64,000 nucleotides of DNA from Candidatus Bathyarchaeota archaeon (GTDB lineage Archaea; Thermoproteota; Bathyarchaeia; TCS64), in contig JAOZHP010000077.1 in assembly GCA_026014815.1 (NCBI GenBank), positions 6,819 through 70,818 of the forward strand, in the 5' to 3' direction. The position numbers were made by a program, and so were the translations under genes. Under the pieces are notes generated by a model. The model was not told where the DNA came from and did not search any database. It saw nothing but the letters and a program-made list of their open reading frames with translations. Position 1 is the stretch's first letter, and each line of letters opens with the position of its first letter. This document shows, piece by piece, positions 8,663 to 59,590 of this stretch.

Positions 8663-9355
8663 ATGTCCACCCCCAGAAACCCTCGTATAAGTTCAGGCGT
8701 GCAAAGTTTGGATCATCTCATGGGTGGTGGCTTCATGGCTGGAGCAATCAACCTTGTCTACGGGGAGGCAACGTCTGGGAAGACCACTCTCGCCGTAACA
8801 ACGATCTTGAGTCACCTCAAAGCGAACCGTGCCTCCAAGGCGTTCATCATTGACTCCGATAACAAGTTAAACACGGCTAGGCTCACTCAGATGGCGGAGT
8901 CTAGGGGACTGGGTCTTCTGAAGAGAATTCACACTTACATCCCAGCTAGTTTCAAGGATCAGGAGGAGACCTTGGAGAGCTTACCGGTGTTGGAGCCACT
9001 GGACATTGTTGTACTTGATAGCGTCACAGGGCTCTATCGTGGTGAGACAGGGGATGAGACTCAGACGTATCAGATCAACAAAGAGCTTAACCGTCAGCTA
9101 GGGTACATTACGGAGGTGGCGAACAAGACGGGTGCCGCATTTATACTCACAGGGCAGGTCCGTAGCATCCTTGACACCAGCCTGATTGAGCCTGTCGCCA
9201 CACGTCTTCTTGGCTACTGGAGTAGTATGGTTCTTAAACTCGATAAAACACCTACACCCGGGTTCAAGCAAGTGACCCTTGAGAAGCCAACCGTTAAGCC
9301 AAACACAATCAAGGTAGCAATAACCGAGACAGGAGTAACGGAGGCAGAGATCTGA
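8663..9355 (+). CDS. RecA-superfamily ATPase, RadB/KaiC-like
   Basis: Walker A GEATSGKTTLA, a Walker B-like IVVLDSVTGLY, 230 aa. TGA stop overlaps the CTG/ATA start region of carS. Confidence 0.6.
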   Translation: MSTPRNPRISSGVQSLDHLMGGGFMAGAINLVYGEATSGKTTLAVTTILSHLKANRASKAFIIDSDNKLNTARLTQMAESRGLGLLKRIHTYIPASFKDQEETLESLPVLEPLDIVVLDSVTGLYRGETGDETQTYQINKELNRQLGYITEVANKTGAAFILTGQVRSILDTSLIEPVATRLLGYWSSMVLKLDKTPTPGFKQVTLEKPTVKPNTIKVAITETGVTEAEI

Positions 9356-9828
9356 TACTAGAGACGATTATATCTGCTCTCTACACGTATCTTCCCGCCT
9401 ACTTCGCCAACGCGAGCCCTGTGGTGCTGGGAGGCGGGCCACCACTGGATGGTGGTAGCAGATGGAGTGATGGGCGGCCACTGCTGGGGGACCATAAAAC
9501 CATAAAAGGCACCTTCTACGGCATCCTCGTCGGCATCATAGTAGGTGTCCTTCAGGGAAACATAGTCGGGGGTTCGATGCAGGCGGTGGGAGCTATTGCA
9601 GGGGATATAATCGTCAGTTTCCTCAAGCGGAGAATAGACCTTGTACCGGGTGAGAGTTTCCCAGTTGGCGACCAACTTGATTTTATTGTTTTCGCGGTTA
9701 TCTTGAGTTACCCATTCCAGAACACTTCATGGGGTCAGATCGTGACGATTCTTCTCATCACGCTTCCCATTCATTACGCTGTGAACTATATCGCGTGGTT
9801 GACAAAGCTCAAAGAGCATCCCTGGTAG
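9352..9828 (+). CDS. carS: CDP-archaeol synthase (CarS, DUF46); start is non-canonical (CTG 9352 or ATA 9355), as no ATG/GTG/TTG is available
   Basis: LILETIISALYTYLPAYFANASPVVLGGGPPLDGGSRWSDGRPLLGDHKTIKG matches the CarS N-terminal signature (LPAYxANxSPVL..GGG.P.D). GGAGG sits 7 nt upstream of the CTG. The frame is closed by TAA at 9295, and the first GTG (9421) falls inside the conserved motif. Confidence 0.7.
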   Translation: MILETIISALYTYLPAYFANASPVVLGGGPPLDGGSRWSDGRPLLGDHKTIKGTFYGILVGIIVGVLQGNIVGGSMQAVGAIAGDIIVSFLKRRIDLVPGESFPVGDQLDFIVFAVILSYPFQNTSWGQIVTILLITLPIHYAVNYIAWLTKLKEHPW

Positions 9829-17676: not shown

Positions 17677-18801
17677 GTGATGAGCCTAAGCGAATCTGAC
17701 TTAAAACTGCTTGTAGCTTTAAAAAAACACATTAACGCAATCACACCAGATCTCCCTGACCGGGCAGTCATCACTGTAGGCCAGTACACCCTAGATTCCC
17801 TTCTTGACTCTCCTTCATTGCAGGAGGAGGGCATAACTGATCTCATCCGGGTACATCATAAGAAGGATTTGGAACATAAAACAGTAGAAATTGATCCCGA
17901 GTACAGCATCGAGGTTGATACTCTATACGAGCCACATTACTGGTTTGACCTCCAAGAGAACCTTGACAGCGATTCCTTCGAAGAGCACGTGAACAAGCGT
18001 ATTTACGATTACCACGACGAGATACTCACCCTCGTAAACGTCTCTGAGGGTTCATCCTCGGGACTATTTCCAATATTACACAAGATTCTCGCCGAGAAGG
18101 GGAAGAACGCACTCGGCGTCGCCGTGTTTCCATCAATGGGCCATAGCAGCGACGCATTATTCAACGCGTTTGCATCCGTGGGTATGATGAACCTTAACAA
18201 TTCAGCTCCCGTACTGCTGCTTGATCAGGGAAAGCTAGAGGATTTCTCGGGGGTGCACCGGGAGGGCGAGCCCCTGCGAGACATGGAAGTTATTGACTAC
18301 ATGGTTGAGCTGCTTCTCGATAAGAGAGGATTCGTTAGGGATATCTACAAGATCTCAAAGAACTTTAATATCAAGACCTTCTCGGCGTTGATGGCCACTG
18401 GTTGCAGCCTTGGCATCTACGAGAATTTCCGAAATATTCTCGAGATCACCCTTGAGCAGCCATTGATGGACTTTGATATCAGCACCGCCACTATGATCTA
18501 TGTACTGGTCAAGGCGCCCATCTATTACCGGGACGAGTTAACGAAAGGGGACATCGAGTTTGAGGTCTCCCAGTGGCTAATGGACTCCCTCGGGGTTGAT
18601 ATTCCCCAGATATGTGAACCCATCTTTGTGGACGAGTTCGGTGACAGGATAGACATCATGATCCTTGTTGGAGGGTTCGATACAAAGAAGATCTACGGGG
18701 ACATCTACCGGAGGATCGAGAGGTTCAGCAACATGAACCTAGAGCAGGGACTCTACGATAAGGAACTTTGGGAAAAAATTAAGAAAGAGTTACTTGGTTA
18801 A
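17677..18801 (+). CDS. Degenerate FtsZ/tubulin-superfamily protein (GTP-binding motifs lost, T7-like loop retained)
   Basis: AVITVGQYTLDSL sits at the G-box position. VAVFPSMGHSSDALFNAFASV aligns with the FtsZ T4 signature (FIAAGMGGGTGTGAAP) but with Gly replaced. QPLMDFDISTATMIYVL aligns with the T7 loop (NVDFADVRTVM). Convergent with the intact FtsZ-like gene, stop codons overlapping. Confidence 0.45.
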   Translation: MMSLSESDLKLLVALKKHINAITPDLPDRAVITVGQYTLDSLLDSPSLQEEGITDLIRVHHKKDLEHKTVEIDPEYSIEVDTLYEPHYWFDLQENLDSDSFEEHVNKRIYDYHDEILTLVNVSEGSSSGLFPILHKILAEKGKNALGVAVFPSMGHSSDALFNAFASVGMMNLNNSAPVLLLDQGKLEDFSGVHREGEPLRDMEVIDYMVELLLDKRGFVRDIYKISKNFNIKTFSALMATGCSLGIYENFRNILEITLEQPLMDFDISTATMIYVLVKAPIYYRDELTKGDIEFEVSQWLMDSLGVDIPQICEPIFVDEFGDRIDIMILVGGFDTKKIYGDIYRRIERFSNMNLEQGLYDKELWEKIKKELLG

Positions 18802-27170: not shown

Positions 27171-27217
27171 CTGGATTCATAATAGAGGTTTTAAGCCCAA
27201 GGTAAAGACACCTATCT

Positions 27218-28207
27218 ATGGCTATCTTGCCTGATGAGTATGTCCTAGGGGTTGATGGTGGGGGGACTTGGACTCGAAGCATCATCATGAGACTAGACGG
27301 GACAGTGTTGGGGAAAGGCAGCGCTGGGCCCTCAAACCCATTAACCATAGGAATGGATGCGGCTCTAGAGAACATCACTCAAGCAGTGGACGAAGCTAAG
27401 AGTGAAGCAGATGTAAAATCATTCAAAGCCAGCAGGCTAGGCCTCGCTGGGGGAGCCCGATCAGTCCTTGGAGACAGGATGGTGGAACGTCTCCCCGAGA
27501 ACTATGGGGATACAGGGATCATCTCTGACACTGAATCCGCGTTGGCTGGCTCCACAGGGTGTAGGCCCGGGGTCGTGGTGATAGCTGGCACGGGTTCTAA
27601 CGTGTATGGAAAGAACGCACAAGGCGAGGAGGCGAAGGCGGGGGGATGGGGATGGCGCCTCGGTGACGAGGGAAGCGGGTACACGATAGGCAAGAACGCG
27701 ATAATAGCAGCATTAGAGTATCATGATGGAAGAGGACCATACACGACGCTCAAGGAGAGCATCCTGAGATACCTCGAAATCAAAGACATTGAGGAAATCA
27801 TCGACTGGACCTATGACTCTGGACGCGAGCCCAGACACTTTGCTTCACTGGTCCCATTAGTTAAGGAAGCTGAGAAGAGTGGAGATAAGGTCGCCGCTAA
27901 GATCATGATGGAGGTTGGCGCCCAGCTAGGAGGTATCGCTCAGGTAGTAGTAAGGAGACTAGGACTAACGGGAGCTTTTCCTGTTGCGTATGTCGGCGGT
28001 GTATTCAAGCAACCCCTTTCCTACAACGTTGCATTTGAGGAGAAGGTTCGCCAAGTAGCCCCGGACTGTCAAATAATTGAGCCGTTGTTCTCTCCCACCG
28101 TTGGCTCGGCTCTTCTAGCCCTAATAGCTATGGGGATTGATGTAGATGACGACCTCCTCAACAACGTAAAGACGAGCTTCACTGGTAGAGGTGACGTGAA
28201 TGAGTAG
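27218..28207 (+). CDS. BadF/BadG/BcrA/BcrD-type ATPase sugar kinase (MurK/N-acetylglucosamine kinase-like)
   Basis: LGVDGGGTWTRS (ASKHA phosphate-1), IAGTGSNVYG (phosphate-2), GWGWRLGDEGSGYTIG. Overlaps murQ by 8 nt. Confidence 0.6.
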   Translation: MAILPDEYVLGVDGGGTWTRSIIMRLDGTVLGKGSAGPSNPLTIGMDAALENITQAVDEAKSEADVKSFKASRLGLAGGARSVLGDRMVERLPENYGDTGIISDTESALAGSTGCRPGVVVIAGTGSNVYGKNAQGEEAKAGGWGWRLGDEGSGYTIGKNAIIAALEYHDGRGPYTTLKESILRYLEIKDIEEIIDWTYDSGREPRHFASLVPLVKEAEKSGDKVAAKIMMEVGAQLGGIAQVVVRRLGLTGAFPVAYVGGVFKQPLSYNVAFEEKVRQVAPDCQIIEPLFSPTVGSALLALIAMGIDVDDDLLNNVKTSFTGRGDVNE

Positions 28208-29099
28208 AACAACTGAGCAACTGAACCCTGCATCGAAGGGGATAGACGAGAAGCCCATCAGGGAGATACTTGAAATCATCAACACCGAGGACTCCAAGAT
28301 AGCTGAAGCCATCAGAAAGGAGCTACCACAGATCGAGAAAGCGGTGGAGGCAATAGTGAACACTGTCAAGTCTGATGGAAGAGTCTTCTTAATGGGCGCA
28401 GGGACCAGTGGCAGACTGTGCATACTTGAGGCGTCCGAGATACCCCCCACCTTCGGCATCGACCCCGAGGTCATTCAGGGGGTAATAGCGGGCGGACTTG
28501 ACGCCCTACACGGGTCAGTGGAGACAGCGGAGGACCAATCCAATAAGGCTTGGAGCGATCTCCAGAGCCGAGGCTTCAACCAGCGTGACCTCCTAATGGC
28601 TCTATCAGCCTCAGGAAGTACTCCCTATGTGCTCGGCGCAGTGAAAGCCGCCAAAGAAATCAAAGCTAAGACCATAGGGGTGGCATGCAACAAGGGCACT
28701 CCACTGGGAGAGTTAGCTGACATCTCGGTCGAGCTTATAGTGGGTCCCGAGGTGGTGGCTGGCTCAACACGGATGAAGGCTGGGACTGCCCAGAAGATGG
28801 TGCTCAACATGATGAACACCTCAGCTATGGCAAAGCTGGGTCTTATCCATGATGGCTACATGGTGGGTGTTCAGGCATCCAACATTAAGCTCATGGACAG
28901 AAGCACCCGCATAGTGTCCAATATCGCTGAGATTAGCTATGAAGAAGCTCGAAAAGCCCTTGAGATCACCAAATATGACGTACGTGTTGCTTTACTCTAT
29001 GTCATGACAGGAATGACGATAGACGAGGCGAGAACCGCACTGAGCGACTGGAGGTCAGTAAGAGATGTTCTCAGGAAGAAAGGTGGCAATGTTGAGTAA
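28200..29099 (+). CDS. murQ: N-acetylmuramic acid 6-phosphate etherase (MurQ, SIS domain)
   Basis: GRVFLMGAGTSGRLCILEASEIPPTFG and SASGSTPYVLGAVKAAKE match MurQ-conserved blocks. About 300 aa. Confidence 0.85.
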   Translation: MSRTTEQLNPASKGIDEKPIREILEIINTEDSKIAEAIRKELPQIEKAVEAIVNTVKSDGRVFLMGAGTSGRLCILEASEIPPTFGIDPEVIQGVIAGGLDALHGSVETAEDQSNKAWSDLQSRGFNQRDLLMALSASGSTPYVLGAVKAAKEIKAKTIGVACNKGTPLGELADISVELIVGPEVVAGSTRMKAGTAQKMVLNMMNTSAMAKLGLIHDGYMVGVQASNIKLMDRSTRIVSNIAEISYEEARKALEITKYDVRVALLYVMTGMTIDEARTALSDWRSVRDVLRKKGGNVE

Positions 29100-29147
29100 C
29101 GTGAGGGGATATTATTATTTCTACAAGGCAGAAAGGAGGCATCTGCC

Positions 29148-30314
29148 CTGAGAGTCACGCCCGGAATAGATGTACTTCTAAAGGACCCGGATAAGCACCT
29201 CGGGCAAGCTAACATAGGTCTCGTCACCAATCCGACTGGTGTGACCAACGGGCTTGAGTCCACCATCGACGCGTTGCACAGATGCTCCAAGGTAAATCTT
29301 AGAGCCGTGTTTGGGCCTGAGCATGGAGCGAGAGGCGACGCGCAGGACGCTCTCAAGGTGTCTGGCCACGTGGACGCGTACACAGGGCTCCCTGTTCATA
29401 GCCTGTATGGTGATCACGAGAAGCCTACCGTTGAGATGCTGGAAGGCCTCGAAGCTCTGGTTTTTGATATACAGGATTGTGGCGCCCGGTTCTATACCTA
29501 TGTTTCAACTCTCACTCATTGCATGGAGGCTTCAGCAGAGCATGGCATACGTGTTGTTGTCCTTGATAGGCCCAACCCTTTGAACGGAGACGCGACCGAA
29601 GGCAACATATTGAAACCCGGTTTCAGGTCCTTCATCGGGTTACACCCAGTCCCTATCCGTCACGGCCTAACTGTCGGTGAGCTTGCCCAGTTCATCAATC
29701 AAGGTATCCAGTGTGATCTTCACGTGGTCGAGATGGAGGGATGGAGACGCGGAATGTGGTACGACGAGACCAGTTTACCGTGGATTCAGCCCAGCCCTAA
29801 CCTGCCCTCCCTTGACACAGCGACAGTGTACCCCGGCACATGCTTCTTCGAGGGAGTGAACGTCTCCGAGGGTAGAGGAACAACGCGGCCCTTCGAGTAC
29901 ATCGGTGCTCCATGGATCGATGGCAGAAGCTGGGCAGAGACCCTCAACAACACAGGTCTCCCCGGGGTGTGTTTCCGGAGCAGCCACTTCACCCCCACCT
30001 TCTGGAAATTCAAGGATGAAAGATGCGGAGGCGTACAGGTCCACGTAGTTGACAGGAAGTGTTTCAGACCAATGGAGACGGGTCTCCACCTTTTAACGAC
30101 GTTAATTCAGCTCTACCCGGACACTTTTAGCTTCAACGAGTCATCCTACGATAAGCGGCGCCACTTTGATCTCCTAGCAGGTACAGACACTCTAAGAGCA
30201 GACCTAATGGCCGGTGTCTCAGTCGAGGAGATCATGGCCTCCTGGATGCCTGAACTGGAGGAATACCGGGAGAAACGTAAAGAGCATCTGCTCTATGGAG
30301 GCGACGATGAATGA
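29148..30314 (+). CDS. namZ: DUF1343-family exo-beta-N-acetylmuramidase (NamZ/YbbC-like); start is non-canonical (CTG 29148 with AGGAGG 8 nt upstream, or ATA), as no ATG/GTG/TTG is available
   Basis: GIDVLL...IGLVTNPTGV, FGPEHGARGDAQDA, FDIQDCGARFYTYVST, LDRPNP and GRGTTRPFEYIGAP are all DUF1343 blocks in order. The frame is closed by the murQ TAA 16 codons upstream, and the first GTG (29241) lies inside a conserved block. Confidence 0.75.
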   Translation: MRVTPGIDVLLKDPDKHLGQANIGLVTNPTGVTNGLESTIDALHRCSKVNLRAVFGPEHGARGDAQDALKVSGHVDAYTGLPVHSLYGDHEKPTVEMLEGLEALVFDIQDCGARFYTYVSTLTHCMEASAEHGIRVVVLDRPNPLNGDATEGNILKPGFRSFIGLHPVPIRHGLTVGELAQFINQGIQCDLHVVEMEGWRRGMWYDETSLPWIQPSPNLPSLDTATVYPGTCFFEGVNVSEGRGTTRPFEYIGAPWIDGRSWAETLNNTGLPGVCFRSSHFTPTFWKFKDERCGGVQVHVVDRKCFRPMETGLHLLTTLIQLYPDTFSFNESSYDKRRHFDLLAGTDTLRADLMAGVSVEEIMASWMPELEEYREKRKEHLLYGGDDE

Positions 30315-31465
30315 GTGATAAAAAAACTTTCAGGGGAACCCTGGTGACACCCTTCAAAGTCATAAACGATGGGCAACTGGAGTTAGAAGGAGTCACCATA
30401 ACCTACGCTGGGCCCAGAAGAACGACATCAGGCAAGGTAAAAGATTACGGTGACAACATCATCACACCGGGGTTCATCGATATCCATATCCACGGCGGAG
30501 CCGGGTACGACGCAATGGACCCTGAACAAGAAGCCCTAAACAAGATCTCAGAGTACCTAGCAGGTGGGGGAGTGACAGGTTTCCTCGCCACAACCCAGAC
30601 CGCCCCACTCATCCAGACCCTAAATGCACTCAGAAGGATACGTGACGCAGTAAAAGCCGGAACCACCGGCGCTAAGCTTCTTGGGGCACATATGGAAGGA
30701 CCGTTTATCAGCCCTGTGAAAAAGGGGGCACAGCGAGAGTCTTCCATACGTTCACCTACAATCAATGAAATCGCTGAGGTGCTCCAAGTCTCAGATGGGG
30801 CGCTCAAGATTGTGACTCTCGCCCCCGAGGTAGAGGGAGCCGTCGAGGTTATCAGATGGCTCGCGGATCATGCTGTCGTTGTCTCCGCTGGGCACACTGA
30901 GTCGTCATACGAGGAGGCGTGTGAGGCGATCGATGCAGGTCTATCTCATATGAGTCACTTCTTTAACGGTATGCGGGGCTTCCATCACCGTGAACCCGGT
31001 GTAGTGGGTGCAGGCCTCATCGATGACAGAGTTACGGTAGAGCTGGTTGCCGACGGGCTTCACGTCCACCCCGCCGTACTCAGGCTCGCAGCTGTAGCCA
31101 AGGGGCCAAGCATGGTCGCCCTTGTCTCTGATTCAATAAAACCCGCTGGTCTACCTGACGGTGAGTATCAGATAGATGGCAGAACTTTGATTTTAGGGGG
31201 TGGATTAGTCAAGCTTCCCTCTGGGGTGATAGCCGGTAGCTCAATTCGACTGAACGACGCCGTGAGGAACATGGTGAACGTGGGGCTCCCATTATCGGAT
31301 GCTGTTCAGATGGCCACCGACACCCCTGCGAGGATTCTTGGGCTCACACCAAGAATGGGAAGACTTGAACCGGGAAGCGACGCCGATATCGTTGTCATGG
31401 ACCAGACTTACCGGGTTCTAGAGACCTTGGTGGACGGTGAAACCGTTTACAGGCTGAGTGACTAG
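30311..31465 (+). CDS. nagA: N-acetylglucosamine-6-phosphate deacetylase (NagA)
   Basis: GFIDIHIHGGAG, GAHMEGPF, SAGHTESSYEE, SHFFNGM, ALVSDS. ATGA overlap with namZ. TAG stop. Confidence 0.85.
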   Translation: MSDKKTFRGTLVTPFKVINDGQLELEGVTITYAGPRRTTSGKVKDYGDNIITPGFIDIHIHGGAGYDAMDPEQEALNKISEYLAGGGVTGFLATTQTAPLIQTLNALRRIRDAVKAGTTGAKLLGAHMEGPFISPVKKGAQRESSIRSPTINEIAEVLQVSDGALKIVTLAPEVEGAVEVIRWLADHAVVVSAGHTESSYEEACEAIDAGLSHMSHFFNGMRGFHHREPGVVGAGLIDDRVTVELVADGLHVHPAVLRLAAVAKGPSMVALVSDSIKPAGLPDGEYQIDGRTLILGGGLVKLPSGVIAGSSIRLNDAVRNMVNVGLPLSDAVQMATDTPARILGLTPRMGRLEPGSDADIVVMDQTYRVLETLVDGETVYRLSD

Positions 31466-31468
31466 GAG

Positions 31469-32659
31469 ATGAGAGACACTTATCGTAAGGTCACGGAGCT
31501 CCGAGAAAGAGAAACCAGAAGAATAATAGGGCTTATGTCAGGGACATCGGCGGACGGAGTCACCGCTGCACTCACAAGGATCACCGGAGCAGGGGAGCAA
31601 GCAACCATCAAACTCGAAGGATACAAGACATACCCCTACCATGACGAGGTACAACAACGCCTATTTACTCTATTCAACCCTAAGACAGGAACCGTAAGAG
31701 ACGCCTGTGAGCTGAACTTCGTCATCGGGGAAGCATTCGCGGACTCCGTTGAACGCATCTTGGCGGACACAGGGATCAATGTTAGCGACGTAGACCTTAT
31801 CGGCAGTCACGGTCAAACGATATGGCATCAACCAAAAACTAACCTAGTCGCAGGGCACAGTACACGTTCCACGCTTCAGATAGGTGAACCAGCAGTCATC
31901 TCATTCAAAACAGGTCTCCCAGTTATCGCTGACTTCAGGAAAGCAGACATCGTGGCTGGGGGCGAAGGCGCACCACTAACACCCTACCTCGACTACGTTC
32001 TCCATAGAGACCCCAAGGCAAATAGGGTACTGCAGAACATCGGGGGAATCGCTAACCTGACATACCTACCCAGCGGTGGATCACTTGACGACATAGTTGC
32101 ATTCGACACTGGACCGGGGAATATGATCATCGACGCAGTCGTGAAGAGGTACACGGGAGGCAGTCACGATGTTGATGGGGCTATCGCGAGACGCGGCGAG
32201 GTCCACCCTGTTCTTTTGGACAAACTATTGTCTCATATCTATTTCGCGTCGCGTGCTCCAAAGACCACTGGCAGGGAGATGTTCGGGGAGCATTATGCTG
32301 ATGAGATCATAAAGCAGGCCAAGAAGATGAGGGTATCCATGGAAGACGTGGTTGCCACTATCACGGCGCTGACCTTTGAATCAATAGCTCAGGCATACGA
32401 GACCCATCTACCCGGAGATGTTGACGAGATATACGTCTCAGGTGGTGGAGCGAGAAACCCTGTGCTCATGGAAGGCCTCAGGGATCGACTTGAGGCTCCC
32501 GTATACGAATACTCAGCCCTAGGGTTCCCTAGTGAGGCGAAGGAGGCGGTTCTCATGGCGTTGCTGGCGAACGAGCACGTGATGGGGGTCCCATGTAACG
32601 TACCTTCGGCTACCGGAGCCCAATCGAGAGTTGTTCTAGGTTGCTTAACATGGGTCTAA
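31469..32659 (+). CDS. anmK: Anhydro-N-acetylmuramic acid kinase (AnmK)
   Basis: IGLMSGTSADGV, DLIGSHGQTIWH, ADFRKADIVAGGEGAPL, FDTGPGNMIID. 396 aa. Confidence 0.85.
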   Translation: MRDTYRKVTELRERETRRIIGLMSGTSADGVTAALTRITGAGEQATIKLEGYKTYPYHDEVQQRLFTLFNPKTGTVRDACELNFVIGEAFADSVERILADTGINVSDVDLIGSHGQTIWHQPKTNLVAGHSTRSTLQIGEPAVISFKTGLPVIADFRKADIVAGGEGAPLTPYLDYVLHRDPKANRVLQNIGGIANLTYLPSGGSLDDIVAFDTGPGNMIIDAVVKRYTGGSHDVDGAIARRGEVHPVLLDKLLSHIYFASRAPKTTGREMFGEHYADEIIKQAKKMRVSMEDVVATITALTFESIAQAYETHLPGDVDEIYVSGGGARNPVLMEGLRDRLEAPVYEYSALGFPSEAKEAVLMALLANEHVMGVPCNVPSATGAQSRVVLGCLTWV

Positions 32660-32692
32660 CCGTTAAATCCTGAATGCACACATATTCTCTAG

Positions 32693-33898
32693 GTGAATGT
32701 TTTGGATAGTGCAGCTCTCAAAGAGGCCATCAAGAGGATCGATGAGAACAGGATAATCGACCTCGCGAAGCAACTCGTCAGTATCCCCAGCGTATCTGGA
32801 GACGAGAAAGCGGTGATGCATAAAGCTCGTGAGATACTTGAGGAGGCCGGGATCACAGTAGAGTTCCATGGCTCAGAGGAACGCCCAGTGATCAACGCCG
32901 TGATAAACCCGGACGCAGACAAGCTCCTTATATTCAATGGGCATCTCGACGTAGTACCCATTGCTAGGCCAGAAGCGTGGACCAAGAAGCCCTGGGACCC
33001 TGTAGTCGAGGATGGACGTATCTATGGAAGAGGTGCAAGCGACATGAAGAGCAGCTGCGCCGTGATGATCCACATCCTAGAGATTCTAAAAGACATGGAC
33101 CTACCAATCGCGGTTGGTGTACACCTTGTCCCCGACGAGGAAAGAGGAGCCAACGCAGGCTCAAAGATTCTGGTCGAAAAGATCAAGAATGCTGAGATGA
33201 GGCGACCAGACTACGTGGTCATCGGTGAGCAGAGCAACCTCAAGGTCAGGGTCGCTGAGAGAGGTATGTTCGGTTTTCAGGTCAAGTTCTATGGAAGAGC
33301 GGCTCATACAGCCGCGTCTAGGACCACAGGGATCAACGCCATCGCTAAGGCAAGCAAAGGAGTCCTCGCTCTTGAACACCACATCGACAAGTTCCATGAA
33401 TGGATAGGGCACCCCATGCAGAGCGTCAACATCATCGAAGCAGGGCTCGTCAGCAACCAAGTACCCGCAGAGTGCACCATCACCGTGGACAGGCGCCTCA
33501 TCATAGGTGAGACCGCAGACGACGCCGTCGCAGAGGTCAAGGCGGACCTCGATAAAGCAGGTGAAGGAGACCCTGACTGGAATTGGGAGATCGTCGCCGA
33601 CAAGGACGAGAAAGGGAACTGGGTCTACACGCCAGCCAACTACACTCCACCCGACAGTCCTCTAGGCCAAGCCTTCATGAAGGCGGTCCCAGCTGCTTTG
33701 GGCATTAAACCGGAGATCTACGTAGAGTGGGCGGGCAGCACAGACGGACGCCTCTACAGACATGAAGGCATCCAGACAGTGGGCTTCGGCCCCATCGGGA
33801 AAGGAGCCCACGGACCAGACGAGTTCGTCTACGTGGACAGCCTCATCAAGGCAGCTAAGGTGTATCTTTCCCTCGCCTTGGAGCTTTCCGGGGCGTAA
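32693..33898 (+). CDS. M20-family metallopeptidase/deacylase (ArgE/DapE-like), last gene of the amino-sugar cluster
   Basis: GHLDVVP, GRGASDMKSS and the EERGANAGS metal-ligand blocks of M20. GTG start immediately after GGTGA. Confidence 0.7.
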   Translation: MNVLDSAALKEAIKRIDENRIIDLAKQLVSIPSVSGDEKAVMHKAREILEEAGITVEFHGSEERPVINAVINPDADKLLIFNGHLDVVPIARPEAWTKKPWDPVVEDGRIYGRGASDMKSSCAVMIHILEILKDMDLPIAVGVHLVPDEERGANAGSKILVEKIKNAEMRRPDYVVIGEQSNLKVRVAERGMFGFQVKFYGRAAHTAASRTTGINAIAKASKGVLALEHHIDKFHEWIGHPMQSVNIIEAGLVSNQVPAECTITVDRRLIIGETADDAVAEVKADLDKAGEGDPDWNWEIVADKDEKGNWVYTPANYTPPDSPLGQAFMKAVPAALGIKPEIYVEWAGSTDGRLYRHEGIQTVGFGPIGKGAHGPDEFVYVDSLIKAAKVYLSLALELSGA

Positions 33899-53383: not shown

Positions 53384-53490
53384 GCATTTGGGATCGGTGA
53401 TCCACTTAACTGAACTGTCCCTTTGATGATGAAGATTGGTACGCTTATTGTTTATTAAACATTACAAACCCAATTTTTCTGGGAAACGCA

Positions 53491-56944: not shown

Positions 56945-58171
56945 TTGTCTGAAAGGCAACTGCTGGTAAGCAAGATAGAGAACGGAATAGTAATCGACCA
57001 CATCCCGGCGGGTAAAGCCTTCCAAGTACTCAAGCTACTCAAACTCCCAGATGACGCAAGGGCACTGGTAGCCCAGAACGTAGACAGCGAAAGCATGGAA
57101 GCCAAGGACCTCATCAAGATCGAGGGAAGCTACCTCACAAGCAGCGAGATAGACATCATAGCCTTCGTGGCCCCCAACGCCACACTCAACAACATCGAGA
57201 ACTGGCAGGTCAAGGAGAAACGCGTCATCACCCTCCCCGAGAAGATCGAGGGCGCGTTCAACTGCCCAAACACTCTTTGCCCCACCAACACCAGATACAC
57301 GGCGCCAAACACCAGCTTCACAGTCGAGGCAGGGAAACAACTAGAGGAGACCAAGCTCCACTGCATCTACTGCGGAAGCATCACCTACTATGGCACCATC
57401 CAGGAGAACATACAGAGCGAGAGCTTCAGGATCGAGCGCAGAGGCCTCGTAAGCAAGGAAAAGATCGAGGAAGTCTTCCTAGACATGTTAATCCAAGGGG
57501 GAGCCCTCAGGTTCTCCCGGAGCCCCGAGGAGCCATTCATCCTCAAGAGTGGCAGACCAAGCCCATACTTCATCAACCTAGGCGCCCTCACCGACGGAGA
57601 GAGCCTTGCCAAACTAAAATGGGCGTTCGCAAGCTACATCGCCCTCCTCAGGGAGCAGGGCAAGATAACCGACTTCGACTACGTGTTCGGGCCAAGCTAC
57701 AAGGGCATCAGCCTCGCCGCCCTCACATGCGAAGGACTCAACGAGCTATACGGAATGGATATGAGGTACATGTACGACCGCAAGGAGGCCAAGGAGTACG
57801 GCGACATGAGCTCAGACAAAGTGCTGGTAGGCGCCAACTACTTCCAGCCAGGGCAACGCCTCCTCGTGGTGGACGACACCATAACCACGGGACTAACCAA
57901 AGTAGAGACCCTCGAGAAACTCAGGTTACTCGGGGACCACGAGGTAGTGGGAATGGTGATAGCGGTGGACAGGCAGGAGGCGCTGGGCGACAAGGACAAT
58001 GTCGAGGAGCAGAGCGCCGTCCAGTACCTGGAAGAGGAGCTAGGCATACCCGTTTTCAGTATTCAGAACATCCAAAGCATCTTCAACCTCATAAAGGACA
58101 GCATCGGAGACGACATCAAAAAACTCTGGGTCGATTATTACAGCAAGTACGGTATCGTGGACTTGGATTAA
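56945..58171 (+). CDS. Fusion of aspartate carbamoyltransferase regulatory chain (PyrI) with orotate phosphoribosyltransferase (PyrE)
   Basis: N-terminus: IENGIVIDHIPAG, KDLIKIEGS, APNATLNNI, CPNTLCPTN...CIYCGS (PyrI allosteric and Zn domains). C-terminus: FILKSGRPSPYFINLG, FGPSYKGISLAA, YDRKEAKEYGD, LLVVDDTITTG, VDRQEALG (PyrE). TTG start. Confidence 0.8.
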   Translation: MSERQLLVSKIENGIVIDHIPAGKAFQVLKLLKLPDDARALVAQNVDSESMEAKDLIKIEGSYLTSSEIDIIAFVAPNATLNNIENWQVKEKRVITLPEKIEGAFNCPNTLCPTNTRYTAPNTSFTVEAGKQLEETKLHCIYCGSITYYGTIQENIQSESFRIERRGLVSKEKIEEVFLDMLIQGGALRFSRSPEEPFILKSGRPSPYFINLGALTDGESLAKLKWAFASYIALLREQGKITDFDYVFGPSYKGISLAALTCEGLNELYGMDMRYMYDRKEAKEYGDMSSDKVLVGANYFQPGQRLLVVDDTITTGLTKVETLEKLRLLGDHEVVGMVIAVDRQEALGDKDNVEEQSAVQYLEEELGIPVFSIQNIQSIFNLIKDSIGDDIKKLWVDYYSKYGIVDLD

Positions 58172-58190
58172 GTCCCCCTTTTTATTCATC
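58172..58190. terminator. T-rich terminator candidate
   Basis: GTCCCCCTTTTTATTCATC follows the TAA of the pyrI-pyrE fusion. Confidence 0.35.
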
Positions 58191-58207
58191 CCTTCAAGAG
58201 TCAACTC

Positions 58208-59590
58208 ATGGAGAATTTTGACGTCCTCGTGGTGGGCAGCGGCTCAGGGATGATGATAGCCAACGCCGCCGTCAACGCGGGCATGAAAGTGGCCTTGGTG
58301 GAGAAAGGCCTCATGGGAGGTACCTGCCTCAACACCGGGTGCATCCCAAGCAAGATGGTCATCTACCCAGCCGACATTGTCAACCAGATCAAGCACGCCG
58401 AGAGGCTAGGCATCCACGCAAAGATAGAAAGGATTGACTTCGCCGGAATCATGCGGAGGACAAGGGAGTTCGTGGCACACGACCGTAAAACCATGGAAGA
58501 CGCCGTCCCCCACATAGATGGACTCACCTTCTATCCAGAGCAAGGAGAGTTCATCGACGATTACACCATGAAAGTCGGGAATAAGACCATCAAAGCAGAA
58601 AACATTTTCCTCGCATCAGGGTCCCGGCCCCATATACCACCCACAAAAGGTCTCAGCGATGTGGATTATCTCACAAACAGGAACGTCTGGGACCTAGATG
58701 AGGCACCCGAGAGCATGATCATTGTCGGAGGCGGCTTCATCGCCGCTGAGATGGCTCACTTCTTCAGCAGCATGGGCGTCGAGGTCACAGTCCTCAGCAG
58801 AAGCCCACGGCTCCTCAAGCACAGTGAACCCGAGGTCTCAGAGATACTCACTGCCTCCCTCAGACAACGAATACACATAGAGACAGGCATCGAGATGACA
58901 GAGGTCAAAAAGAAAGACAGAGGCATAGAGGTCACCGCGGTCCGAGACGGGCAACCCCACAAGTATCAGGCGGAACAACTCTTCGTTGCCACCGGCAGGG
59001 TAAGCAACGCTGACATCCTCAAGGTGGAGAAGACGGGAGTCGAGGTCGATGAAAGAGGATACATCAAGGTCGACAAGAGCTACCAGACCACGAAGCAGCG
59101 GATATGGGCCTTCGGTGACGCCATAGGAAAGGCAATGTTCAGGCATGTGGCAAACCAGGAGGCACAGCTAGTCTGGCAAGAGTTCAGTGGAGGCCACCCA
59201 CACACAATGGACTACGACAAGGTGCCTTACGCGGTGTTCAGTTGGCCCCAGGTAGCGTCGGTAGGGCTCACGGAGGCCGAAGCGACGCGTCGAGGACTAA
59301 GTTTCAGGATAGGAGAGTACAACTACATTGACACGGCGAAGGGCGCCGCGATGAACGAGGAGGACGGATACGTGAAGATAGTCTTGGAAGCCGAGACATA
59401 CAGGATACTGGGAGCCAGCATCATCGGTCCCTACTCGCCGATACTGATACAGGAAGTCATCAACGTAATGTACGCCGGAGATGGCTCAGTGTACCCCATC
59501 GCTGAGGCGATGCACATCCACCCCGCGCTTCCCGAAGTCGTCCAGAGAGCCATCTACAACCTCAGGGACACTGGGCATCACCACGCGTGA
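58208..59590 (+). CDS. Class-I FAD-dependent pyridine nucleotide-disulfide oxidoreductase (dihydrolipoyl dehydrogenase/glutathione-reductase family)
   Basis: VVGSGSGMM is the FAD-binding GxGxxG, GGTCLNTGCIPSK is the redox-active CxxxxC, and HIHPALPE the C-terminal dimerisation motif. Confidence 0.75.
   Translation: MENFDVLVVGSGSGMMIANAAVNAGMKVALVEKGLMGGTCLNTGCIPSKMVIYPADIVNQIKHAERLGIHAKIERIDFAGIMRRTREFVAHDRKTMEDAVPHIDGLTFYPEQGEFIDDYTMKVGNKTIKAENIFLASGSRPHIPPTKGLSDVDYLTNRNVWDLDEAPESMIIVGGGFIAAEMAHFFSSMGVEVTVLSRSPRLLKHSEPEVSEILTASLRQRIHIETGIEMTEVKKKDRGIEVTAVRDGQPHKYQAEQLFVATGRVSNADILKVEKTGVEVDERGYIKVDKSYQTTKQRIWAFGDAIGKAMFRHVANQEAQLVWQEFSGGHPHTMDYDKVPYAVFSWPQVASVGLTEAEATRRGLSFRIGEYNYIDTAKGAAMNEEDGYVKIVLEAETYRILGASIIGPYSPILIQEVINVMYAGDGSVYPIAEAMHIHPALPEVVQRAIYNLRDTGHHHA

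Follow-up and report, generated by a model that had tools for sequence, protein, structure and literature searches.

A putative CTG initiation codon at a stop/start overlap in front of namZ in a Candidatus Bathyarchaeota genome

The namZ locus and its 5' region

The subject of this study is the 5' end of namZ, a gene carried by a 64,000-nucleotide stretch of contig JAOZHP010000077.1 from a Candidatus Bathyarchaeota archaeon (GenBank assembly GCA_026014815.1; the whole stretch is called the window below), where a CTG codon at position 29148 is proposed to serve as the initiation codon. The layout that the original prediction had read from this region is borne out by the sequence: the namZ frame is closed by the TAA of the preceding gene, murQ, 16 codons 5' of the CTG; no in-frame ATG, GTG or TTG occurs between this TAA (29097) and a GTG at 29241, which lies 31 codons beyond the CTG; and a Shine-Dalgarno sequence (SD), AGGAGG, occupies positions 29134-29139, its 8-nucleotide spacer to the CTG reading CATCTGCC. 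The murQ TAA and namZ share one frame, and 47 codons follow the TAA before the GTG is reached. This open stretch translates as REGILLFLQGRKEASA-L(CTG 29148)-RVTPGIDVLLKDPDKHLGQANIGLVTNPTG-V(GTG 29241), and its first residues are REG, not the SEG given originally. Further near-cognate codons within it are ATA 29109, ACG 29157, ATA 29166 and ATA 29214. The features of the locus, including a short open reading frame (mini-ORF) in the +1 frame, are as follows.

28200..29099, + strand: murQ (MurNAc-6-phosphate etherase, MurNAc being N-acetylmuramic acid), with matches to TIGR00274 and NF003915 above their cut-offs; TAA at 29097-29099
29050..29055, + strand: GGAGGT, possible (predicted) SD of the mini-ORF, 9 nucleotides before ATG 29065
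29065..29151, + strand: +1-frame mini-ORF, MFSGRKVAMLSNVRGYYYFYKAERRHLP followed by its stop, overlapping the murQ 3' end and stopping inside the proposed namZ start codon
29134..29139, + strand: AGGAGG, SD of namZ, which also forms Arg-Arg codons of the mini-ORF
29148..29150, + strand: CTG, proposed namZ initiation codon, from the alignment of ortholog starts and the switch of coding frame
29149..29151, + strand: TGA of the mini-ORF, overlapping the CTG (CTGA junction)
29148..30314, + strand: namZ coding sequence as proposed, 388 amino acids, with NamZ_N and NamZ_C domains and no signal peptide
29214..29216, + strand: ATA, GenBank start of MCW4049844.1 (366 amino acids), rejected
29241..29243, + strand: GTG, first canonical in-frame codon, rejected as a start (357 amino acids)
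30311..30314, + strand: ATGA, overlap of the namZ stop with the nagA start

Judged by its profile matches, the encoded protein is a member of the NamZ exo-beta-N-acetylmuramidase family (PF07075, PF20732), with 288 bits for NamZ_N (E 3.6e-86) and 202 bits for NamZ_C (E 1.5e-59), where the Pfam gathering cut-offs are 26.9 and 25. The structure PDB 4k05_A aligns from its residue 1 with residues 1-383 of the CTG-started protein (310 bits), whereas position 1 of the Pfam NamZ_N profile falls nine codons 5' of GTG 29241. A start at that GTG would drop 31 residues, including nine positions of the profile. Orthologous NamZ proteins are mostly 387-388 amino acids long, and the CTG-started protein has 388. 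Its N-terminus would read (M)RVTPGIDVLL, the expected N-terminal peptide being MRVTPGIDVLLK or LRVTPGIDVLLK according to whether Met or Leu stands at position 1.

The likeness of this N-terminus to the start of the mature domain in YbbC/NamZ proteins, to which the original prediction had appealed, is apt, except that the window protein lacks any signal peptide. With NamZ/YbbC (PDB 4k05, 4jja) it shares the same two-domain architecture, within a murQ-nagA-anmK operon. Characterised bacterial NamZ proteins are exported, and the depositors of 4k05 labelled it an "exported protein". Here, in contrast, the host is archaeal and the protein begins straight at the mature domain; because of this start and the missing signal peptide, the NamZ of the window is presumably cytoplasmic. 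The second-best match to it (P0002, 706 amino acids, from ENA) is of bacterial type and combines a signal peptide with two NamZ units in tandem, of which the second is cut at the contig end.

Start codons of the orthologs and constraint on the CTG

The homologs considered were the 120 best clusters, and DNA was read at the window and at ortholog loci coded L0xx. In about 85% of these clusters the start lies exactly 24 residues before an [LV][VI]TN motif, just where CTG 29148 stands. Some 20 clusters have anomalous lengths, either truncated at VLLDD, VDVLL or GLVTN or over-extended, as is to be expected of gene callers that meet no canonical start. Comparison of ortholog start regions was one of the checks put forward with the original prediction, and its outcome supports the reading of the CTG as the namZ start: wherever the DNA was read, the aligned codon is ATG, GTG, TTG or CTG.

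TTG start: L001, L002, L024, L025; SD GGGGGT
GTG start: L060; SD AGGAGG
ATG start: L062; SD GGAGG, at the same 8-nucleotide spacing
CTG start: L053 (=L055), L054, L056, L057, L058, L059; SD AGGAGG, 8 nucleotides
CTG start: L063; SD AGGGGG, 8 nucleotides

The CTG was thus read in DNA at the window and seven further distinct loci; for other members of the clade described below it was deduced from truncated gene calls. Pattern scans of metagenomes and genomes yielded for the most part distant bacterial NamZ loci, which told little about the start codon. The spacing of SD and start is 8 nucleotides throughout, shared with nine other loci, and the spacer sequences all differ. The seven further CTG loci are 65-70% identical to the window and were obtained in different projects with different assemblers (JGI, ENA, Logan, NCBI). 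Upstream, the frame is closed close to the CTG by an in-frame TAG 4 codons 5' in L056 and L058 and by a TGA 7 codons 5' in L053 and L063. At L056:1093-2980 (contig_135677, of long-read style) murQ and the 332-amino-acid gene that follows it (see below) are each split into two ORFs, probably by indel errors; the AGGAGG-N8-CTG junction there is intact.

The eight CTG-start genes (65-93% pairwise identity) have 25 columns of invariant leucine, and the start column is the only one in which every codon is CTG; the remaining 24 all vary in codon, with CTG making up 31% of their codons. The informative base of the triplet is its C, because T and G are fixed by the overlapping TGA. This C is also the third base of the last sense codon of the upstream ORF (CCC, TCC, GTC, ATC or GCC), where it should be nearly neutral; it is nonetheless C in 8/8 genes, whereas of 86 fourfold-degenerate sites in these eight genes only 2 are invariant. 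The CTG is under constraint at the nucleotide level, partly confounded by the overlapping TGA. The distribution of variable sites points the same way. On the 3' side of the CTG they all fall at namZ third positions (8/8 in codons 2-12, and 3/3 before the first downstream GTG), and on the 5' side variation peaks at the third positions of the +1 frame (15/30). The coding frame therefore switches exactly at the CTG, which argues against a GTG 6-8 codons downstream as the start in the CTG clade.

In a neighbour-joining tree (N-termini trimmed, 100 bootstraps) the CTG clade comprises 18 clusters with 98/100 support; 17 of them have anomalous calls, truncated or over-extended, and the other member, P0028 (L062), starts with ATG, to which it has reverted. 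The window joins this clade in 0/100 replicates and pairs weakly (30/100) with P0044, the protein of the GTG-started locus L060; the L063 protein likewise falls within the clade in 0/100. As both stand outside it, CTG occurs at this codon in three separate lineages. Three such lineages within a single gene family are far from the background rates, which are of the order of 1e-4 or lower per start codon: switches of start codons to CUG have been counted as 2/61,358 for AUG, 1/5,080 for GUG and 1/2,468 for UUG (PMC5622118).

The upstream frame, carS and the operon

In 13 of the 14 loci the namZ start is overlapped at +1 by the TGA of an upstream +1-frame ORF, so that the junction reads NTGA with N being A, G, T or C; in the exception, L001, a mini-ORF ends at a TAG 7 nucleotides into namZ. 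The upstream ORF is, in relatives (L060, L061, L058, L059, L053, L056 and others) and so in many Bathyarchaeia, a gene of 332 amino acids between murQ and namZ, found at 2006-3004 in L060. It evolves as coding sequence, with a third-position peak, and its conserved C-terminus reads ..VW.TIGEAYRR[HLI]xx before the stop, the Arg-Arg codons being the AGGAGG itself. No curated family matched this protein, the nearest being a weak match to GHL6 (E 0.0096); it contains an FLDEPHY motif and may be a TIM-barrel glycosidase.

The window is without this gene, about 0.9 kb having been deleted by comparison with L060, and the gene is also lost in the TTG clade. What the window retains is the mini-ORF, which could start at ATG 29065 (28 codons), ATG 29089 (20 codons) or GTG 29101 (16 codons). 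ATG 29089 sits 11 nucleotides before the murQ stop, a distance shared by the start of the 332-amino-acid gene in L060, and the product M..LSNVRGYYYFYKAERRHLP resembles both ends of the longer protein (MIPERGVSY...EAYRRHRA), its C-terminus being ..AERRHLP as against ..EAYRRHRA. The mini-ORF thus looks like an in-frame deletion remnant. It may be translated, to judge by the open frame, the possible SD at 29050-55 and the parallel mini-ORFs of 13-30 codons in the four TTG loci. In three of these (L002, L024, L025) the mini-ORF overlaps the murQ stop as ATGA or GTGA, in its shortest reading, and its TGA overlaps the TTG start of namZ. At the namZ junction the weak codons TTG and CTG dominate, whereas ATG dominates elsewhere in the window.

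Long ORFs of the window were scanned for an SD-preceded near-cognate codon ahead of their first canonical start, and this gave a second candidate 20 kb from namZ, in carS.

9340..9344, + strand: GGAGG, SD of carS, 7 nucleotides before CTG 9352
9352..9828, + strand: carS (CDP-archaeol synthase) as proposed, with a CTG start

Here, too, the CTG overlaps a TGA (9353-9355), that of a RadB/Rad51-like gene at 8663-9355, giving GGAGG-N7-CTGA. The Pfam CarS profile begins at residue 3 counted from the CTG; 76 of 120 ortholog clusters are 158 amino acids long, exactly the length from the CTG; and ortholog N-termini (MNLETVLAAVYLFLPAYFAN) align with (L)ILETIISALYTYLPAYFAN, as in MNLETVL.. against (L)ILETII... 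With GTG 9421, the first canonical codon, as its start, the protein would be 23 residues shorter. In GenBank (MCW4049830.1) it begins at ATT 9367, and the deposited starts of both proteins, ATA 29214 and ATT 9367, are probably wrong. A CarS homolog of 135 amino acids (P0192, 68% identical) has its call truncated at VLGGG, where the first canonical GTG of carS stands in the window; a related genome may here hold a further CarS that starts on a non-canonical codon. The CTGA overlap, the double role of the AGGAGG, the deleted gene between murQ and namZ and the carS start had not figured in the original prediction.

The Pfam scan found no further CTG start among 10 other stop-to-stop ORFs of the window. 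At 53410 (+ strand) the open frame of an ORF of 1127 amino acids begins right at the sequence GGTGAT-N8-CTG(A); the first ATG of this ORF (53491) is 27 codons downstream, and no Pfam domain was found in its product. A different kind of irregularity is seen at 56945-58171 (+ strand), where PyrI domains (residues 7-147) are followed by about 260 residues with a weak phosphoribosyltransferase match (E 2e-4, below cut-off); this ORF may be a fusion of the two, or may contain a missed stop or a frameshift. It is overlapped by an ORF of 314 amino acids (57277-58221) without a Pfam match.

The operon to which namZ belongs extends from 27218 to 33898 (+ strand), in the order kinase, murQ, namZ, nagA, anmK and M20 deacylase.

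27218-28207, + strand: NagK-like BadF/BadG kinase, first operon gene
30311-31465, + strand: nagA, SD GGAGG
31469-32659, + strand: anmK
32693-33898, + strand: M20 deacylase (DapE/ArgE-type)

The other junctions of the operon are tight (-8, -4, +3 nucleotides) and its internal genes carry SDs (GAGGTGA for murQ, GGAGG for nagA), the AGGAGG of namZ being the strongest. The kinase ATG at 27218 has no SD, and about 27 nucleotides upstream of it stands a TTTTAA box (27189-27194, + strand) resembling an archaeal TATA box, from which the operon would be transcribed as a leaderless mRNA. By its predicted functions, the operon is a complete set for the catabolism of MurNAc and anhydro-MurNAc in an archaeon; this completeness, together with a NamZ devoid of signal peptide, suggests that imported fragments of bacterial cell walls are processed in the cytoplasm.

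Possible routes of initiation and their significance

We propose that CUG 29148 would be read as an initiator, presumably by the methionyl initiator tRNA despite a mismatch at the first base, as happens with GUG and UUG, to yield a cytoplasmic NamZ of 388 amino acids. Initiation would be helped by the 6-nucleotide SD, 8 nucleotides upstream, and ribosomes translating the +1-frame ORF would stop at the TGA that shares two bases with the CTG and so be delivered onto the weak start. That ORF would be a remnant of 20-28 codons overlapping the murQ 3' end in the window, and the 332-amino-acid gene in relatives; the carS start at 9352 would use the same arrangement. Any NUG seems acceptable at such a junction, which would explain the occurrence of ATGA, GTGA, TTGA and CTGA among the orthologs. 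From the comparative evidence the CTG is very probably the namZ start, and the full explanation, a CTG start assisted by the SD and most likely by reinitiation, is likely. That termination-reinitiation is the main route is a narrower proposition, for which we consider the chances even. We infer both the decoding of CUG by initiator tRNA and the supply of ribosomes by coupling rather than by SD-led de novo initiation; for reinitiation, the grounds are the four NTGA variants at one junction, the dominance of weak codons there and the survival of a mini-ORF after deletion of the upstream gene in two lineages.

Ordinary SD-led initiation de novo at the same CTG would make the stop overlap a product of operon compaction, without mechanistic role. 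In its favour, the SD is a perfect 6-mer at optimal spacing, stronger than any other of the operon, L001 lacks the exact overlap (its mini-ORF stop lying at +7), and the reported contribution of SDs to coupling varies widely (PMC6728339). We nevertheless hold it to be rather unlikely, since NTGA is kept in 13/14 loci even where two lineages have deleted the 332-amino-acid gene, TTG and CTG prevail at this junction although ATG is otherwise the main start in the window, and carS repeats the CTGA overlap.

It is improbable that NamZ is a shorter protein, beginning at ATA 29214 as in the deposited MCW4049844.1 (366 amino acids) or at GTG 29241 (357 amino acids). Translation table 11 allows ATA as a start, and position 1 of the NamZ_N profile aligns with the residue at 29214; against this, neither codon is preceded by an SD, the ortholog codons aligned to them are ordinary Val or Ile and never starts, the codons right after the CTG evolve as coding in orthologs, and the 22-31 residues that would be lost (22 with the ATA) are conserved in archaeal and bacterial homologs and align to 4k05_A. 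ATA 29166 was rejected as a start together with these two: all three lack an SD and positional conservation, and would cost conserved structured residues.

A silent or decaying namZ, whose start has been lost in this genome and whose CTG is a leftover, could be read from the missing canonical start and the loss of about 0.9 kb compared with L060, which may have damaged expression; yet the 388-codon frame is intact and 66-70% identical to orthologs along its full length, an entire clade of intact genes keeps the CTG, the ATGA overlap of the namZ stop with nagA persists, and carS, presumably an essential gene in archaea, shows a start of this kind. We regard this possibility as quite improbable.

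Highly improbable, in turn, is a fused NamZ, whether the murQ TAA is read through (MurQ-NamZ) or ribosomes of the +1-frame ORF undergo a -1 frameshift at the CTGA. The frame shared by murQ and namZ and the upstream ORF ending exactly at the junction would permit it; the former relation is peculiar to the window, however, since in orthologs the frames differ, another gene lies in between, or in-frame stops precede the start by 4-9 codons; no slippery sequence is conserved (the last upstream codons are CCC, TCC, GTC, ATC and GCC), and no MurQ-NamZ fusion occurs among the database homologs, the 706-amino-acid P0002 being a tandem NamZ. Programmed readthrough was ruled out on the non-conservation in orthologs of the in-frame relation and the open stretch, and programmed frameshifting on the free variation of the bases before the CTG (GCC, GTC, CGT, TAT, AGC, ATC). 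Finally, an error of sequencing or assembly at 29148 (C for T, A or G), conceivable for a single metagenome-assembled genome without a near-identical second copy in the protein database, has a negligible probability and was set aside as excluded, because the codon is CTG in seven other distinct loci, which belong to different assemblies, and a second CTG start, that of carS, lies on the same contig.

Several points weigh against the proposed explanation as a whole. In E. coli reporter studies, CUG is a very poor start codon. Reviews of archaeal initiation list AUG, GUG and UUG only (PMC7531240). The CTG start rests on sequence comparison in an uncultured, metagenome-assembled organism. The T and G of the CTG are also fixed by the overlapping TGA and the AGGAGG by the Arg-Arg codons; the tree is a neighbour-joining one only; several CTG-clade orthologs have a GTG 6-8 codons 3' of the CTG that may be usable there, though the window has none; and the homology of the mini-ORF with the 332-amino-acid gene rests on short matches. 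No significant RNA structure, and none that would enforce coupling, was found at the junction (folding z = -0.28). AGGAGG itself is frequent in the window, with 64 matches on both strands, mostly within genes, and GGAGG-N6-9-CTGA was seen 8 times against 3.5 expected, a number reached by 3 of 100 shuffles. By itself, the SD-CTG motif is weak evidence; it is the comparative data that lift the case above chance.

Of the six matches to GGAGG-N6-9-CTGA other than those of namZ and carS, the three on the + strand, at 17837 (two overlapping SDs, one CTG) and 47894, have their CTG out of frame with the ORF there. At the namZ junction, a perfect 6-bp inverted repeat, GGCAGA...TCTGCC (29127-29147, + strand), places the AGGAGG in a 9-nucleotide loop directly before the CTG, and this hairpin is not conserved in orthologs; a search for tRNAs and Rfam families at the junction found none.

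The closest known counterparts of the CTG itself are the starts of E. coli hda and yfjD, which have been confirmed experimentally (EcoGene 3.0, PMC3531124). There, as here, CTG is the only plausible start, was predicted from conservation and a ribosome-binding site, and was missed by gene finders. Those are isolated bacterial cases, whereas here the host is an archaeon with aIF1/aIF2-type machinery, and the CTG is conserved in a clade, recurs in three lineages, is seen in two genes of a single genome, and always overlaps an upstream stop. For the coupling, experiments in Haloferax and E. coli have established termination-reinitiation where gene pairs overlap, in the archaeal case with the SD embedded in the upstream gene (PMC6728339, PMC10666635; reviewed in PMC12548453). 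The ATGA and TGATG junctions so described (Huber et al. 2019, PMC6728339) share with ours the co-directional genes, the 4-nucleotide overlap and the SD in the upstream ORF; their restart codons are ATG (or GTG), while ours are CTG or TTG, and in the window the upstream partner would be reduced to a relay ORF of 20-28 codons.

A non-canonical start retained by selection is also known from E. coli infC, whose AUU is a conserved weak start in the IF3 autoregulatory loop. The parallel suggests a functional, weak or conditional initiation; here no regulator is implicated, and the codon and the domain of life differ. In eukaryotes CUG is the commonest near-cognate start, and a route through Leu-tRNA and eIF2A has been proposed (PMC4705826). 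Near-cognate use is common to both, and archaeal aIF1, aIF1A and aIF2 are homologs of the factors that set stringency in eukaryotes; by contrast, the start here involves no scanning or Kozak context, being set by the SD and the stop-codon overlap, and nothing at namZ points to Leu over Met at the N-terminus. For archaea we found no report of a conserved CUG start in the literature; ribosome profiling in Haloferax placed about 30% of putative alternative initiation sites on near-cognate codons, and these were set aside (PMC7261190). The case is thus one of non-AUG initiation and stop/start coupling in a new combination, not a new kind of system.

If the proposal is true, the archaeal repertoire of starts would extend beyond AUG, GUG and UUG, with weak start codons tied to stop/start overlaps, and the junction would offer a natural system for studying first-base discrimination by aIF1/aIF2-type machinery, notably by reinitiating ribosomes. 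The presence of all four NTGA variants at one orthologous junction is in itself a clean natural experiment for models of termination-reinitiation. More tentatively, as a possibility to which we give somewhat less than even weight, ribosomes of the Bathyarchaeia that terminate at an overlapping stop may restart on any NUG, CUG being a fourth genuine start at CUGA that selection keeps as a conditional device. The CUG would then be kept, not repaired to AUG, GUG or UUG, because it would make synthesis of the downstream protein strictly conditional on translation of the upstream ORF, and a short relay ORF would be retained after the deletion of its gene solely for the hand-over of ribosomes. Were this general, CTG would start a few per cent of the genes in these genomes (2 of about 50 here), which would be systematically mis-annotated, and gene finders limited to ATG, GTG and TTG would mis-call such genes throughout the Bathyarchaeia.

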